From Syntrophaceae bacterium CG2_30_58_14 (lineage in GTDB: Bacteria; Desulfobacterota; Syntrophia; Syntrophales; UBA5619), in NCBI GenBank assembly GCA_001873745.1, contig MNZQ01000162.1, positions 1 through 50,210 on the forward strand: a stretch of DNA of 50,210 nucleotides, given 5' to 3'. This document shows positions 4,584-50,210 of this stretch, in pieces. The position numbers were made by a program, and so were the translations under genes. The notes below the pieces were generated by a model that searched no databases, was not told where the DNA came from, and saw nothing but the letters and a program-made list of their open reading frames with translations. Every line of letters starts with the position of its first letter. The stretch's first letter is position 1.

Positions 4584-5653
4584 GACCCTGATCGATCTGG
4601 CCCGGAGAGTCGAACATTTCGGGGTTTGTCTTTGACATCCCTGAAAAAGAGCTGCGCATCCGAGAGCTGGACAAGGAATCCCTGCGCGACGGTTTCTGGG
4701 ATGAACCGGAAAAGGCGAGCGGGATCCTCCGGGAAAAAAGCCAGTTGACGGCTGCGGTCGAGAAATGGAAACAGCAGCAAAACAGCCTCGAAGATCTGCG
4801 GATTCTTTCCGAAATCGCCTCCGAGGAACAGGATGATCAGACCCAGGAAGAGATCCGCTCCGAGTTGGAAAGGCTCAATGCCGCCCTTCGGGCCGATGAA
4901 GTAAAGATGATGCTTGGCGCCGAACAGGATCCGATGAACGCGATCCTGTCGATTCATGCGGGCGCGGGGGGAACGGAGGCGCAGGACTGGGCGGAGATGC
5001 TGCTGCGGATGTACCTGCGCTGGGCGGAGAGAAAAGGTCTCGAGGCCGCCATCATCGATTATCTGCCGGGTGACGAGGCCGGCATCAAGAGCGTGACCTG
5101 GACCCTCCGGGGTGAATACGCCTACGGCTATGCCAAGGCGGAAATCGGAATTCACCGGCTGGTGAGGATATCCCCTTTTGATGCCAGCGCGCGCCGTCAC
5201 ACCTCATTTGCCTCCGTCTTTGTCTATCCCGAGGTTGACGACCGGATTGTGATTGAAATCGATGAAAAGGATCTGCGCATCGACACCTACCGCTCCACCG
5301 GCGCCGGCGGTCAGCACGTGAACAAGACCGATTCCGCGGTGAGGCTCACCCATCTGCCGACGGGAATTGTGGTCCAGTGCCAGAACGAGCGTTCGCAGCA
5401 CAAGAACAAGGCGATGGCCATGAAATACCTCCGTTCCCGTCTCTATGAGATGAAACTCCGGGAGAAGAATGCAAGGCTCGATGAGATCAACAAAACCAAA
5501 AAAGATATTGCCTGGGGCAGCCAGATCCGCTCCTATGTGCTGCATCCGTATAGAATGGTTAAGGATCATCGGACGAACCTCGAAACCGGCAACGTCAACC
5601 GGGTTTTGGACGGCGATATCGACGATTTCATCGAGGCCTATCTGCTGCATTAA
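4564..5653 (+). CDS. prfB: Peptide chain release factor 2, expressed through programmed +1 frameshift: join(4564..4632,4634..5653)
   Basis: ATG 4564 gives MLEGIHETLIDLARRVEHFGVCL and then in-frame TGA (4633-4635) within CTT TGA C. The +1 frame continues DIPEKELRIRELDKESLRDGFWDEPEKA... into the listed ORF 4745..5653. SPF (RISPFDA) and GGQ (GAGGQHVNKT) motifs are present. Confidence 0.93.
4618..4636 (+). promoter_or_regulatory. prfB: prfB autoregulatory +1 frameshift site (G-rich SD-like element, then CTT TGA C)
   Basis: TTCGGGGTTTGTCTTTGAC. GGGG at 4621-4624, slippery CTT at 4630-4632, and TGA at 4633-4635 followed by C. The architecture matches the known bacterial RF2 site. Confidence 0.85.
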
Positions 5654-5847
5654 TATTTTGGGGAAGGGCAAAAGTATGGTATAGGACTGCGCGCCTTCTG
5701 GGTAACTTCAAAGGAATTTCTCAATGATCAAGCGCCTGTTAGGGCTTGGGTCGCTATAAAATGGGTTAGAGACCGTGCGCTGGACGGGCACGGGGCGACG
5801 GCATAGCCATCATGGGCGAATGGAAACAGGCCAGCAAGGAGTCAACG

Positions 5848-45531: not shown

Positions 45532-45900
45532 TCATGGCCTGAAAGGGAGAATGCGCGCCCGCGAACGATAGGGATCAATCGTGATGAGGGCGCCTTGTAG
45601 AAGTTCCTTCTCAAATTGCCCAATGGCACTCAGAACCAGCGAGCCGATCGCTTCCGGGACAATATTTTGTGTGCGAACTTGAATGACGCTCGGCCCGGCA
45701 GCACGAGAGCCGGCGAGCAAGGCGCCAAAATCCAGGTCATGAGTAAAGACAATGAAACCATTTTCCTGAGCGTAGGCCAAGATCTGACTGTCTTCGGCAG
45801 CCGGTTCCCCCACATCGGACCAATGAACGCATTCAAAACCTTCAGCAGTCAAGAATTGCACCCAGCGGGGCGGCAAATTCATGTCCAGCAATAACTTCAT
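45532..45900 (-). CDS. DUF5615 family PIN-like toxin
   Basis: MKLLLDMNLPPRWVQFLTAEGFECVHW...FIVFTHDLDFGALLA. ATG 45900 overlaps the DUF433 stop (ATGA). Confidence 0.75.
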   Translation of the reverse strand: MKLLLDMNLPPRWVQFLTAEGFECVHWSDVGEPAAEDSQILAYAQENGFIVFTHDLDFGALLAGSRAAGPSVIQVRTQNIVPEAIGSLVLSAIGQFEKELLQGALITIDPYRSRARILPFRP

Positions 45901-46130
45901 CCCGTCACCATATCGAGTTCGCGCTCTTCTGATCGCCATGCCGCATAGGACAGGGCTTCCATGACATCATCCCTTTCCAGATAAGGATAGTCAGCAAGGA
46001 TTTCCGCTATTGTTTTGCCACAGGCGATCAGACCGACGATGGTTCCTACGGTCACCCGCATTCCCCTGATACAGGGTTTTCCTCCCATTACCTTGGGGTT
46101 TATCGTAATCCTTTTTAATGGTTTCATCAC
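45897..46130 (-). CDS. DUF433 domain antitoxin
   Basis: GGKPCIRGMRVTVGTIVGLIACGKTIAEILADYPYLERDDVMEALSYA is the DUF433 signature. 77 aa. Confidence 0.8.
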   Translation of the reverse strand: MMKPLKRITINPKVMGGKPCIRGMRVTVGTIVGLIACGKTIAEILADYPYLERDDVMEALSYAAWRSEERELDMVTG

Positions 46131-46224: not shown

Positions 46225-46665
46225 TCATAGAATCATCATCCTTTCTTCGTTTACTCCCACGAGCGCGGTTTGGGCGATGGCGGCGGCGACAAAATCTTCC
46301 CCGCGTACCTCCCCGTGAAAGGCGATTCCAACCTTCCCGCAGGCGGCTTCGCAATGGGTCATCGTTTGGTTCAATTCCGGTAAAATATCGCTGTCGTTTT
46401 CATAGGCGACGACCTCAATGGAAATGGGCCGTCTTCCTTCGGAAGCCAATGTCTCCACATAGGCTGAAAAGAGCACACCCGCCCCCGCCCCGGCATCGAG
46501 AATCCTGACATGATCGAACTGATTTGGCGCAAACATCGACGCCATGAAACGGGCAATCGCAACCGGCGTCAAAAACTGCCCGATGTCGGAGCGCTCCGCC
46601 CGCTGCGTGCGGCCGTTCACGGTCCGGCGGACGTGATCGAGTGTAGTTAATGAGGGTTCAGTCAT
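46225..46665 (-). pseudogene. N-terminal stump (146 codons) of an N6-adenine DNA methyltransferase (Eco57I/TaqI-like); catalytic NPPY region missing
   Basis: GQFLTPVAIARFMASM and ILDAGAGAGVLF (motif I) are present. The frame ends at NEERMMIL-stop, where the sequence turns AT-rich and the TA cassette begins. There is no (N/D)PP(Y/F) downstream. Confidence 0.6.
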
Positions 46666-46706
46666 ATTAATACGTTGTAGCGGACTGTTTCAGAAACGAA
46701 GATCGA

Positions 46707-47734
46707 TTACCTCGTTCTGTATTGCTGGAGTCCGGTGCAATCAATCAAGCGGTCAAGGTTACGTAAAGTAAATACTTTGCCTCTCGTTGCGATAAGCATC
46801 TTCTTCATGTCCTCGCGACGCACCCCGAACCCCCGCCCGGCAATGCAGGCGATTACCTCGTACTTCGGCTTATCGGGTGGTTGCCCGGCCATGCTCAGCG
46901 CAAACAGATGCTGGATTCGGGTGGCCTTGTCACGGGCCGTGCCGTCGTCCTCCGTAATTTTCGCCTCGATGATGATCCGGGGATTGAATTCGCTCGGGAC
47001 GATGAAATCGGGCGTCTGGTCGAAGCCCGGTATTCTCTCGGCCCACTTGGTTTTCCGGTAACTGATGCCGGCTTGCTCAACGCATCCTCAACGGCTGCCT
47101 CAAGGCTGTTTCCGACAAGATCACTGACAGAATCGCGGTGTCCGGCAAACGGTCGCCCAAGAAAACGCTCATAGAGAAGCATGGCATAAGGAACGCCCAT
47201 TCCCGCAAGCGTCTGTAATCCGGAAAGGCCCATTTTTGTATCAGCCTTGTCGAGGCGATGGATTTTATCGGGTGAAGCCGGGGGCGCTCCTTCTTTCAGC
47301 AGCCGGCAAGCCGTGTCTATCAATGCCTTCACCCGTTCAACGGTGACTTTCCCGTCGGCAAGGGGAGAAAGGGGTGATAAACGTATTTTTCGGTCAAGGG
47401 CGCGGACAAAGCCCTGGCTGACTTCAACGCCTGTCTGTAGAGTGGCGAGATACGCCCATTCCGGCGGCGTGAAGCCCAGCATGGTCCGCAACACCAGGAT
47501 CACGATGGGGGCTTCAGAAGTCTTTTGAAGCAGCGATTCGGGTTCAAGGAAGGTGAAACCCTTGGTGGCTTGTTTCAGCGCCTCGTAACCCTGTTCGAAA
47601 ACAGGGTAGTCAATGAAACCGAGTCCTTTCGGCATGATGAGAAATTCCGATTCGAGGCACGAAAAAACCGCAATCACGAACGTGTCGAGATCCGCCTGAA
47701 CTTCGGCAAAAGGCAGTTCAAAAGGATATTTCAT
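46707..47734 (-). pseudogene. PD-(D/E)XK restriction-endonuclease-like gene interrupted by a 1-nt frameshift near 47066-47072
   Basis: Frame A (ATG 47734) decays into RS-rich text after ...EAAVEDALSK and stops at 46895. The adjacent frame (hand-translated, open 47087..46707) reads AGISYRKTKWAERIPGFDQTPDFIVPSEFNPRIIIEAKITEDD...MAGQPPDKPKYEVIACIAGRGFG... It has no start codon before the catalytic D...EAK. Confidence 0.6.
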
Positions 47735-49928
47735 CACCGGATCCCCCATATGAAGTCCTGTTTTCCTGAACATAATCATACTGCTGAAGTAGTGGCGCAT
47801 TCAGGTACGTTTCCGCCAGATGATCTTCGATACATTTCAGTGCATGCCCTTGCCTCAGTTCAGCAGCCGCGACGGCGAGTTTTGCCGACGCCGGCTGCGC
47901 CTTGTCCCAGGTCACGCGAAGCCGCCAGACGGCGAGCCGGGCCAAATGGCCGTAGATGATACAGCGGATGTCGCCCCGGGTCGGTTTCAGACCCCCGATC
48001 TTCAGTTTAGCCAGATCATCCAGGACCAGCTCGGCAATCTGTTCCGGCGAGTCCGCAAGCCATTTGCGCGGTATCGTTCCGGTCGAACGGCAGACAAAAA
48101 CCGTATCCACGATCGACGAGCCGGTGCCGCTGATATGGATCGATGCGCCCATTTCCGCCGGGCATGGGAGTGAAGCGGAGCAGGTTAGTCCGGCATCCAG
48201 AATCGCTACGATCACGGGATGATACGCCTCCAACTTGTTGTGATGGTAGGTGAAGGCCAACGGCTTTCCCGGCTTCAAGGCTTTGGCCATGTTCTGGAAG
48301 ACGGCTGACAATCCATGTGTAAAGTGGTCAAGACCGCGGTCCATCGTGATGTTGCCGGTCAATTCGTCGGGGTTGCGGGTGGAACGAAGTTGAAATATCG
48401 GGTTTTCCGGACTGACCAGTTTCCGAACCCAGACATAACAGAAATCCATAAGCTCGGCGTACTGGACGTTGCCGAAATAGGGGGGATCGGTAAAAACGCC
48501 ATCCAGGCTGTCGCCGGGCAAATCCGCATTCGTCGCGCTCCCGCAGAGGAGATGAACGCCCCGAGGTGCAGTGATCAAATCGCTGTTTCTCCGGTCGCCG
48601 ATCCATTCATCCGCGATGGATGTCAGGATTTTTCTGCTCCCTTCATGGCGGGTCTCGAAGGGGTGATCGCAGTAGGCCTTTGCTTTCACGTATTTCTCCA
48701 GGATATTCGACCAACCGCCGCTCCCTACGCTCGTGCCGCCGCCGTTGGCGATGCCGAGGAGGTTGGATTCACACTGGATCAGCCCGACGGGAAAACCGTG
48801 GACGGAGAAGATATCGAGGGACTTGAGGGCCATCGCGTCGTACCGGCAAAGCATGTTCTGATAGCGCAAAAGATCCGAAAGATTTGTGATGAGTGCATTT
48901 CTTATCCGTTCATCCTGCTCCGCCGCAAGGGCCCGGCAACTCAGTTCCAGACCCAGCAATTGGCGGTTATTGAACATCTCCCGGTATTTCTTGTAGCCCC
49001 AGCGAAGGAGACGGTCGGTTTCGTCGCCGGGCAGGATTTTGTCGTCGGGGACATGGGTTGTCCCGATTTGTTCAAGCAGAGAGGAAGCCCTGGTGTAATG
49101 GAGCAGGTCATTTTCGTCGGGCCGTTTGAAGAAACGACCATGGTGCGTCGGCTTGCAGTGGCGGCAATGATATTCGATGGCGAACATGCGATGACTGGGC
49201 GGGCCTTCGGCCGGGTTGGGAAAGGTATTGACCTTCCCGCACCGGGGGCAGGCGCATTTGTTTCTTTTTGCCGGTCCTGCGAGGGATATTTTGCTGCCGC
49301 AGGACTTGCATATATCGGGATTTGTTCGGTCTTTAACGCCGTTCAAGTCGCCGCAGGCGGCGCAGATGAAAACATTCTCCGTATGCCGCCGGTTTTCGGC
49401 CAGCAGGTAGCCGGGAAACAGGTCGATTTCATGACCGCAATGGCGGCAGGGCTGCTTTTTCACCCAGAGGAAATACTTGACGTGAGCCTCCGGGGAGCCG
49501 CATTCCAGACATTGGGTGCGGTAGAAGGCGCCGATCTGCGTTTCCAGGCCACGGGTAAGATTTTCCGCCGATTTTCGGTACTTTCCCAAATCAAGATGCT
49601 CGATCTCACGGCTCACAATCCAGTAGGCCATCGGATTGATGTCATAGCCGGTCACATCGCAGCCAAGGCGGTTAGCCTCGATGAGCGGTGTGCCGCCCAT
49701 GAAGGGATCGGCGATGGCGGTGCCTTTCAGATTGTTTGAGCCGTAGAAGGCTTCCCGAAGAGGTTTGTCGCTGAATTCTGAAAGGATAAGACCCCGGAAC
49801 AGCGTACCGGGCCGGCGGGCAAACCACTTATGTACGGCAATGATAGGGCGGTAGTTCTGCTGGATCTGTTTTTCCCGCAGGGCAAGGTCGGAAATAAAGG
49901 AAATGTCGAATTTTTTTTCGATGGACAT
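47718..49928 (-). CDS. DUF1156-type DNA (N6-adenine or N4-cytosine) methyltransferase with a triple zinc-ribbon insert
   Basis: ATG 49928 (MSIEKKFDISF...) lies 7 nt after the upstream stop. AVHKWFARRPGT, DPFMGGTPLIEANRLG (motif I) and FTDPPYF (motif IV, about 400 aa later). Six CxxC pairs lie between residues 140 and 258. Confidence 0.78.
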   Translation of the reverse strand: MSIEKKFDISFISDLALREKQIQQNYRPIIAVHKWFARRPGTLFRGLILSEFSDKPLREAFYGSNNLKGTAIADPFMGGTPLIEANRLGCDVTGYDINPMAYWIVSREIEHLDLGKYRKSAENLTRGLETQIGAFYRTQCLECGSPEAHVKYFLWVKKQPCRHCGHEIDLFPGYLLAENRRHTENVFICAACGDLNGVKDRTNPDICKSCGSKISLAGPAKRNKCACPRCGKVNTFPNPAEGPPSHRMFAIEYHCRHCKPTHHGRFFKRPDENDLLHYTRASSLLEQIGTTHVPDDKILPGDETDRLLRWGYKKYREMFNNRQLLGLELSCRALAAEQDERIRNALITNLSDLLRYQNMLCRYDAMALKSLDIFSVHGFPVGLIQCESNLLGIANGGGTSVGSGGWSNILEKYVKAKAYCDHPFETRHEGSRKILTSIADEWIGDRRNSDLITAPRGVHLLCGSATNADLPGDSLDGVFTDPPYFGNVQYAELMDFCYVWVRKLVSPENPIFQLRSTRNPDELTGNITMDRGLDHFTHGLSAVFQNMAKALKPGKPLAFTYHHNKLEAYHPVIVAILDAGLTCSASLPCPAEMGASIHISGTGSSIVDTVFVCRSTGTIPRKWLADSPEQIAELVLDDLAKLKIGGLKPTRGDIRCIIYGHLARLAVWRLRVTWDKAQPASAKLAVAAAELRQGHALKCIEDHLAETYLNAPLLQQYDYVQENRTSYGGSGDEISF

Positions 49929-49935
49929 GGTGTGC

Positions 49936-50210
49936 CTATTTGCCAGAACGCACCGGGAGCGCCCGGAGGTCGCCGGATTTCCACGGGAGAGTCCAGCGTC
50001 GATCGCCAAGACCGAAACCGAAGAAGGCAGCCTCGCTGAAAACATCTTTGCGGTTTTCTGATGCCCAGGGGCAACAAGCAGATAGCTGTATCAATTCCGT
50101 TAAGTGGACATCATAACTCCTTTGTGCTTTATAACTTTTACCTCTGTTATAAAGCTCCGCCAGCTCACCCTGCGTCGGCATCCGCCAGTCCGTATAGCCC
50201 CCCCGCGGTA
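49936..50210 (-). CDS. 3' part of a DUF1566 (Lcl C-terminal domain)-like gene; 5' end beyond the window
   Basis: The frame is open to the window edge. ...GYTDWRMPTQGELAELYN...CCPWASE...EAAFFGFGLGDRRW...LRALPVRSGK resembles the DUF1566 pattern (WRLPT..EL, W.S, vR.VR). Confidence 0.5.
   Translation of the reverse strand, partial: PRGGYTDWRMPTQGELAELYNRGKSYKAQRSYDVHLTELIQLSACCPWASENRKDVFSEAAFFGFGLGDRRWTLPWKSGDLRALPVRSGK

Follow-up and report, generated by a model that had tools for sequence, protein, structure and literature searches.

The question raised by the locus near the end of a 50,210-nucleotide stretch of DNA from Syntrophaceae bacterium CG2_30_58_14 (contig MNZQ01000162.1 of assembly GCA_001873745.1; positions 1-50,210, referred to here as the window) is whether a large methylase gene and the small nuclease gene that overlaps its end form a system of their own, what kind of system this is, and whether the copy carried by this bacterium still works. 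An earlier note, made from the sequence alone, had described the pair as a restriction-modification (R-M)-like arrangement of an undescribed kind. Our comparison with related loci leads us to regard the pair as probably an autonomous, horizontally mobile, two-gene Type II-like R-M cassette, with the copy in the window being very probably non-functional. The R-M-like reading of the earlier note is retained, while its claim of a new kind of system is not: the architecture is that of an ordinary Type II R-M system, built from two families that are uncaptured by the standard catalogues searched (Pfam, NCBIfam and PADLOC). The open reading frames (ORFs), coordinates and motifs that the note had reported are correct, i.e. 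the methylase runs from the ATG at 49928 to the stop codon at 47718-47720, and the nuclease begins with the ATG at 47734. Both cassette genes are located on the minus strand, and the residues of the nuclease are numbered on the frameshift-repaired protein. The cassette is made up as follows:

46702..49939, minus strand: the whole mobile cassette (methylase and nuclease genes), its edges being those of the DNA homology with other genomes
47718..49928, minus strand: methylase gene, 736 aa, a COG1743/DUF1156-like amino-methyltransferase, recognised from its ORF, motifs and family matches
47718..47734, minus strand: the 17 nt over which the end of the methylase gene overlaps the beginning of the nuclease gene, ATGAAATATCCTTTTGA, with the same geometry elsewhere
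46707..47734, minus strand: nuclease gene, frameshifted, with a repaired product of 342 aa that consists of a helical N-terminal domain (residues ~1-220) and a C-terminal PD-(D/E)XK core

The linkage of the two genes has been examined in a locus survey seeded from nuclease homologues, which covers 83 related loci from many phyla with up to 8 kb of flank: in 82 of them, the gene immediately 5' of the nuclease, in the same orientation, encodes a methylase of the window's type, while at the single unlinked locus the nuclease lies 100 nt from the contig end. The exact 17-nt overlap recurs in 70 of the 82 loci, and its conservation suggests translational coupling, which had been proposed from the window copy. 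All-against-all clustering of the 983 flanking ORFs has revealed no recurrent third gene, the commonest cluster being a generic ABC ATPase that is present at 6 loci, and several loci hold the pair between housekeeping genes. The reverse check agrees with this picture, since in two cultured isolates, Thiovibrio sp. JS02 and Trichloromonas acetexigens, the gene that directly follows the methylase orthologue is that of the nuclease, and the genes around the pair are of the housekeeping kind. The recurrent, self-contained methylase-nuclease module of the earlier note, free of a DUF499, DUF3780 or helicase partner, is thereby borne out.

The limits of the cassette are as sharp as its composition is simple. 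In blastn comparisons with four other genomes, namely the loci L005 (93.8% identity), L006, L003 and L001, the DNA homology is confined to positions 46702-49939, i.e. it begins 11 nt ahead of the methylase ATG and ends 5 nt past the stop codon of the nuclease. No conserved sequence outside the two ORFs, and no conserved promoter, operator, terminal repeats or att (attachment) sites around the cassette, have been found in the 72-78 loci compared; in the window, a scan for promoters and terminators gives a signal at or below chance, with no promoter-like site 5' of the methylase gene.

The cassette is also widely distributed. The repaired nuclease has ~6000 homologues in a protein collection clustered at 90% and 916 representatives at 50% clustering, nearly all of them unnamed, and a scan with one genome per species has found it in at least 559 species. 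The carriers include Thermodesulfobacteriota, Nitrospirota, Bacillota (Moorella, Desulforudis, Pelotomaculum), Acidobacteriota, Verrucomicrobiota, Planctomycetota, Thermotogae, Chloroflexota, Gemmatimonadota, Beta- and Gammaproteobacteria, Fibrobacter and one Micrarchaeota metagenome-assembled genome, and the identity of the nuclease across these phyla is still 62-70%. Those in culture include Trichloromonas acetexigens, Thiovibrio sp. JS02, Desulfacinum hydrothermale DSM 13146, Moorella naiadis, Desulforudis sp. Tu-874 and Desulfallas sp. Bu1-1. Viral carriage is rare, with 8 loci in 2.9 million viral contigs, and we have rejected a virus-borne element on this ground.

Several individual loci deserve mention in their own right. 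Compared with the window proteins, the methylases of L105 (Thiovibrio sp. JS02) and of L106 (Trichloromonas acetexigens) show 72-74% identity and the nucleases only 46%, and a spacer of ~13 nt takes the place of the overlap; the divergence of the one gene is not always matched by that of the other, a hint that partners have been exchanged inside the family. At L006 (5302-13025), the cassette occurs as two tandem 3770-bp units that are 99.7% identical, with three ~185-bp direct repeat copies at their bounds, and is either a repeat-flanked amplified R-M unit or an assembly artefact. A short sequence 5' of the methylase ATG (…GGTTGCRTTGC…) is shared by L005 (~5745-5792) and the equivalent positions of L006 and L001; this element, which could be a local promoter or operator, is missing from the window and L003 and is not conserved across the family. 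Lastly, the gene directly after the cassette at L001 (11108-15721) and L002 (4034-8647) encodes a 1537-aa protein that has a Walker A motif (GVAGSGKSG) and matches nSTAND/AAA families weakly. We have rejected the ideas that this gene is a third component or an intact version of the methylase stump that follows the nuclease in the window (see below), because it is not recurrent and has no similarity to the stump, and it is probably an unrelated STAND-type defence gene.

The second protein of the pair has been predicted to end in a PD-(D/E)XK-like core, and the stretch in question, TPDFIVPSEFNPRIIIEAKITEDD, is present at its place, in a frame that differs from that of the N-terminal 220 aa. Once the frameshift is repaired, the nuclease is full-length and aligns with its homologues from end to end. 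Its catalytic residues are located as follows:

46959..47101, minus strand: nuclease catalytic core, with E212 at 47099-47101, D243 at 47007-47009, E257 at 46965-46967 and K259 at 46959-46961

Among 21 family members of 29-70% identity, D243, E257, K259 and D263 are invariant, and E212 is conserved in at least 90%; the DDGTARDK segment that follows the catalytic core is invariant or mostly at least 90% conserved, and conservation is also strong in the LLYERxLGRPFAxHRDSVS block. The AlphaFold model, with a mean predicted local distance difference test (pLDDT) score of 88.7, is a confident one; its N-terminal domain is made up of helices only, and its C-terminal alpha/beta core has strands at residues 244-246, 254-260 and 293-299 and a helix at 264-282. 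The top PDB match in Foldseek is the DNA-bound Type IIP enzyme BstEII (probability 1.00, E=1e-3, 16% identity), followed by EcoT38I, BsoBI, the Can2 nuclease domains and MGME1. By its E...PD...ExK signature and its modelled alpha/beta core, both of which are shared with restriction endonucleases, the protein is predicted to be an enzyme of the PD-(D/E)XK superfamily, in agreement with the earlier assignment, and its fold is nearest to Type II restriction enzymes. None of the Pfam (including the RE_* families), NCBIfam or PADLOC models covers the nuclease, and it and two relatives match 0 PADLOC families; known restriction-enzyme families of Pfam have been rejected for it, the nearest thing being a weak match, in 5 of the 21 members, to Pfam TPD, which we take to belong to the PDDEXK clan.

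The motifs of the methylase were all found where they had been noticed before, and are listed here with their surroundings:

49803..49838, minus strand: AVHKWFARRPGT, the DUF1156-type N-terminal motif, residues 31-42, unchanged in 40 orthologues
49692..49709, minus strand: S-adenosylmethionine (SAM)-binding motif I, damaged (DPFMGGT; family DPFMGGGT), from the homologue alignment
49155..49511, minus strand: insert between motifs I and IV (residues 140-258), whose six CxxC pairs would form three Cys4 zinc ribbons; probable target-recognition region
48474..48494, minus strand: FTDPPYF, catalytic motif IV, residues 479-485, conserved also in distant relatives

The N-terminal motif AVHKWFARRPGT aligns with the HKWWATRLG and HKYWARRLG of distant DUF1156-type methylases; the motif I region, DPFMGGTPLIEANRLG, begins at residue 74, and the DPPY motif, in which D481, P482, P483 and Y484 are invariant in the 40 orthologues, follows ~400 residues later. 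The CxxC pairs between the two are located at residues 140, 161, 189, 207, 227 and 255, and 12 of the 12 cysteines are invariant in the same orthologues; the insert has a weak match to the zinc-ribbon protein TFS4 and contains beta-hairpins in the structural model. It is likely to be the target-recognition domain. The three putative zinc ribbons are nothing special to this module: the DUF499-linked methylase of Halorubrum lacusprofundi has Cys pairs at the same six positions, from which it follows that the ribbons have been inherited, and we have rejected them as a novelty of the module. To judge from these shared positions, they are ancestral to the COG1743/DUF1156 superfamily.

The assignment to DUF1156 that was made from the N-terminal motif holds in a broad sense and fails in a strict one. 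The window protein scores 20.7 bits against Pfam DUF1156 (PF06634), below the gathering threshold of 24, and 86.1 bits against the NCBIfam antiphage DUF1156 model NF042963, for which the cut-off is 1000; in PADLOC it has partial matches only, to Type II methylase models (PDLC03233 at 2.9e-16, residues 456-627) and to the HmaB models (residues 478-615). Of its orthologues, 15 of 40 reach DUF1156 at E<=0.001. The N6/N4 methylase domain that had been expected from a Pfam scan is likewise just under the threshold in the window protein, while 38 of the 40 orthologues match N6_N4_Mtase (PF01555) at E<=0.001, with the window copy being among the 2 that fail. The broad COG1743/DUF1156 architecture is present, i.e. 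the HKW-ARR motif, motif I, the Cys-rich insert, DPPYF and a conserved C-terminal half, and plasmid-borne enzymes of Halorubrum, Tabrizicola and Acidiphilium align with the methylase over nearly its whole length at 27-30% identity. By its profile scores the protein is only a marginal DUF1156 relative; the source names of its orthologues are 'DNA methylase', 'adenine-specific DNA methylase' and, from NCBI for some of them, 'DUF1156 domain-containing protein'. In the structural model the fold is that of a Rossmann methyltransferase, with matches to Trm11, M.BceJIV, N4CMT, TTHA0409 and M.PvuII.

Beyond the close family, the partner of the nuclease changes. The divergent nucleases have the following neighbours:

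nuclease 41% identical to that of the window: DUF1156-like methylase, 51% identical, located upstream with a gap
nucleases 44% and 37% identical: DUF1156-like methylase, convergent
nucleases 33-34% identical: 441-445-aa methylase with an SPPY motif, convergent
nuclease 31% identical, on a Microbacterium plasmid: 308-aa beta-class methylase (PF01555 at 1e-35), with a one-base overlap

To be found constantly beside a DNA methylase, of one class or another and in varying orientation, is the behaviour of a restriction enzyme; because the linkage is obligate and the methylase partner changes with nuclease divergence, R-M is the best reading of the pair. The partner switching also lends indirect support to the idea that cleavage may be blocked by cognate methylation. 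A separate observation comes from L087 (1491-6199), where the 40%-identical nuclease P0288 is divergent to genes for a 1170-aa DEAD/ResIII helicase and a 412-aa protein of unknown kind; this locus may break the rule of the methylase linkage.

In an intact cassette, the methylase would methylate the N6 position of adenine within a specific DNA site, as the DPPY motif suggests, and the host chromosome would be protected in this way; the nuclease would cut the same site when it is unmethylated, e.g. in phage or plasmid DNA that enters the cell. The zinc-ribbon insert that separates motif I from motif IV would most likely read the target sequence, and the 17-nt overlap would let ribosomes reach the nuclease start via translation of the methylase, so that protection would come before restriction.

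The comparison with known systems has been made with these functions in view. Like the Type IIP systems of BstEII (9ibq), BsoBI (1dc1) and EcoT38I (7edb), the window pair consists of an adjacent methylase and nuclease with no ATPase, and it is likewise mobile, lacks a recombinase of its own and occurs in varied contexts; the nuclease shares with these enzymes the E...PD...ExK residues and the combination of a helical domain with an alpha/beta core, although it has no detectable sequence similarity to any solved one. The Type IIP methylases are of the small alpha, beta or gamma class, whereas the partner here is a large, zinc-ribbon, COG1743-type protein. Compared with the beta class (PF01555; M.PvuII, M.BceJIV), the methylase shares motif I, DPFxGxGT, and the (D/S)PPY motif; in the beta class, however, DPPY comes first, whereas the window methylase is permuted, with motif I first, an insert of ~400 residues and then DPPY, and is much larger.

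The other system to be named is the Hma system, related to Type-1 BREX (bacteriophage exclusion), in which the COG1743/DUF1156 methylase HmaB occurs with the DUF499 ATPase HmaC and the Snf2 helicase-nuclease HmaA. The canonical COG1743/DUF1156 methylase has the same HKW-ARR, DPFMGGGT, zinc-ribbon insert and DPPYF as the window family, at ~29% identity over ~89% of the length, and is ~200 residues longer, with a C-terminal extension that is missing from the window methylase; the 29%-identical relative from Halorubrum lacusprofundi is located in the canonical DUF499-linked context. DUF499, DUF3780 and helicase partners are missing from the window pair, in which the effector is a small stand-alone PD-(D/E)XK nuclease whose gene overlaps that of the methylase. 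The literature on DUF1156, IPR009537 and COG1743 mentions these methylases only in multi-gene contexts of DUF499 and an Snf2 helicase-nuclease. A second kind of pair is found on a plasmid of Tabrizicola piscis (L089, 1543-4493) and on pACMV2 of Acidiphilium multivorum (L091, 5129-8112), where a DUF1156-type methylase of ~710-720 aa is combined with a ~272-aa protein that carries a PD...E-x-K motif (YPDFSLV...EGYEIKG). The gene of this protein overlaps the methylase start and is located upstream of the methylase, unlike the order in the window; the protein is unrelated in sequence to the window nuclease and belongs to no Pfam or PADLOC family, its methylase keeps one of the three zinc ribbons, and the pair is followed by a DUF262 protein and a HEPN nuclease, or by an AAA ATPase. 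These pairs indicate that DUF1156-type methylases have joined two-gene modules more than once.

The window copy of the cassette carries three lesions, of which the earlier note had seen the frameshift of the nuclease and missed the damage to motif I of the methylase, having called DPFMGGT 'SAM-pocket-like' (the motif I coordinates are given above). The lesions of the nuclease are located as follows:

47073..47074, minus strand: frameshift site, AA in the window and AAA in L005, L006 and L003 (agcAAAgcc = Ser-Lys-Ala), from the alignment
47043..47045, minus strand: R231W substitution (TGG), at a position that is Arg in 120 of 120 close homologues

As compared with agcAAAgccggc in L005, the nearest relative (94% identical), the window has agcAAgccggc, i.e. 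one A is missing; no split nuclease occurs in the other surveyed loci, the only locus with two matches being the tandem copies of L006. In the methylase, a 3-nt in-frame deletion has removed one of the three invariant glycines of the SAM-binding loop, which is present in 120 of 120 aligned homologues (the DPFxGGG pattern in 119 of 120), and DPPY is unharmed. When four cassettes are aligned over 3242 columns, gaps appear only at these two deletions of the window, 1 nt in the nuclease and 3 nt in the methylase. From these lesions, the window copy has very probably lost function in both genes. Nonsynonymous/synonymous substitutions number 17/36 and 9/20 on the branch of the window and 17/33 and 8/16 on that of L005; since the ratios are equal, constraint would have been normal until recently, and the inactivation is hence likely to be recent. 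At universally conserved positions, the window copy has one or two deviations and the control sequences have 0-1, and long-term pseudogene decay has been rejected on the strength of these few deviations and the equal ratios.

It may be asked whether the lesions are real, since the cassette could be intact and functional in the organism, with the 1-nt and 3-nt deletions being sequencing or assembly errors in homopolymer runs. Both deletions do fall in short runs (AAA in the relatives and AA in the window; GGGGGG in L005 and GGG in the window), which weighs against a loss of function, and branch ratios that give no sign of relaxed selection are the pattern of an intact gene pair. We nevertheless consider this explanation unlikely, if deserving of respect: a clean 3-nt contraction would be an unusual error, R231W at an Arg conserved in 120 of 120 is a substitution and not an indel, and two indels in 3.2 kb, as compared with none detected elsewhere in the window, are hard to square with random error. 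Long ORFs cover the other ~45 kb without any evident interruption; the ORF pairs whose overlap had looked suspicious turned out to be distinct, complete genes, and outside the cassette a change of frame occurs only in the RF2 gene, where it is natural and programmed.

The reading of the pair as a Type II-like R-M cassette has itself to be weighed against two others, and several findings tell against it. The structural model of the methylase is moderate (pLDDT 69) and its best match is the tRNA m2G10 methyltransferase Trm11, so that the case for DNA as its substrate comes from context; the fold match of the nuclease to BstEII is weak (TM-score, i.e. template modelling score, 0.35-0.40), no PDB sequence matches the nuclease below E=0.2, whether searched with a single sequence or with a profile, and no methylase is visible beside P0288 on the 6.3-kb contig of L087. 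One could then suppose that the pair is not a classical R-M system, with a methylase that acts on RNA or on another non-canonical target and a nuclease that is a toxin or is modification-dependent, so that the two would make up a new addiction or abortive-infection module. The top structural matches of the methylase, which include protein N-terminal methyltransferases beside Trm11, and its weak TIGR01177 and UPF0020 matches speak for such a function, as do the nuclease identity of 62-70% across phyla, which is unusually high for a restriction enzyme, and the failure of HmaB, a canonical DUF1156 protein, to give R-M-like protection of T4 in the one published test. What makes this explanation quite improbable in our view is that the divergent nucleases have genuine DNA methylases as partners, with three other architectures, the beta-class enzyme of the Microbacterium plasmid among them, a pairing that is expected only if DNA methylation neutralises the nuclease; the fold of the nuclease is nearest to DNA-bound Type II restriction enzymes, and every locus of the nuclease-seeded survey with upstream room has the methylase. 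It is more improbable still, to the point of being hardly credible, that a larger Hma/BREX-related system is present, of which the pair is one part and the other genes lie beyond the window end at 50210. The window does end only 270 nt upstream of the cassette, and the methylase has weak matches to the HmaB and DUF1156_antiphage models; its NCBIfam score of 86 bits is, however, far from the cut-off of 1000, the up to 8 kb of flank at ~80 loci holds no recurrent DUF499, helicase or other gene, the pair stands between housekeeping genes at several loci, and the gene upstream of it in the window is an unrelated Lcl_C-domain gene. The two-gene Type II-like cassette remains our preferred reading.

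The surroundings of the cassette in the window hold three further features:

49936-50210, minus strand: C-terminal part of an Lcl_C/DUF1566-like domain gene that runs off the window end, upstream of the cassette
46225-46665, minus strand: 146-aa stump, the remnant of an Eco57I-type gamma-class N6-adenine methylase, covering the first ~127 of ~494 profile positions
45532-46130, minus strand: overlapping gene pair of DUF433 (77 aa) and DUF5615/PIN-like (about 122-135 aa) proteins, with a toxin-antitoxin look

The Lcl_C gene ends with a TAG codon that coincides with the initial bases of the cassette (ggcaaATAGgcac), and the edge of the cassette consequently abuts or supplies the end of that gene. 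On the other side, the stump is an N-terminal quarter that is cut off just before the DUF433 gene and is separated from the nuclease by a 41-nt gap; this gap, the unrelated nature of the stump and the lack of DUF499, DUF3780 and helicase genes between 45.5 and 50.2 kb of the window had all been reported correctly. Which of the two methylases is the partner of the nuclease had been left undecided: the stump has been rejected because it is located outside the homology block, which ends at 46702, and is of the Eco57I type, while the nuclease is always found with the 736-aa type in the seeded survey, and we therefore take the upstream 736-aa protein as the cognate methylase. The DUF433/DUF5615 pair is situated between the stump and housekeeping genes, where the local guanine-cytosine content falls to about 0.49-0.52. 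Together, the cassette and the adjacent stump look like a small graveyard of restriction systems. At the other end of the window, on the plus strand, the RF2 gene (PCRF and RF-1 domains; ORF 4745-5653) has the canonical programmed +1 site CTT TGA C at 4630-4636, preceded by a GGGG Shine-Dalgarno-like element.

A bolder proposal, which we regard as doubtful, is that short COG1743/DUF1156-type methylases with interchangeable small PD-(D/E)XK nucleases are an unrecognised and very successful minimal class of R-M systems. If this were true, such systems could be the simple ancestors or the reduced descendants of the multi-gene Hma/BREX-related defence systems; the three-zinc-ribbon insert would be a new kind of target-recognition domain and the nuclease a new family of restriction enzymes, possibly with a new specificity, and the high conservation across phyla together with the ORF-exact edges would reflect a novel transfer mechanism.

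For the family as a whole, the finding means that DUF1156-type methylases, which have so far been discussed only in multi-gene Hma/BREX-related systems, also serve a plain two-gene module. The nuclease is almost always annotated as 'hypothetical protein', and neither Pfam nor NCBIfam nor PADLOC recognises it, so that current surveys of defence systems miss the system. The two-gene module offers a simpler experimental handle on what DUF1156-type methylases recognise, and a characterised member might supply a new restriction specificity.

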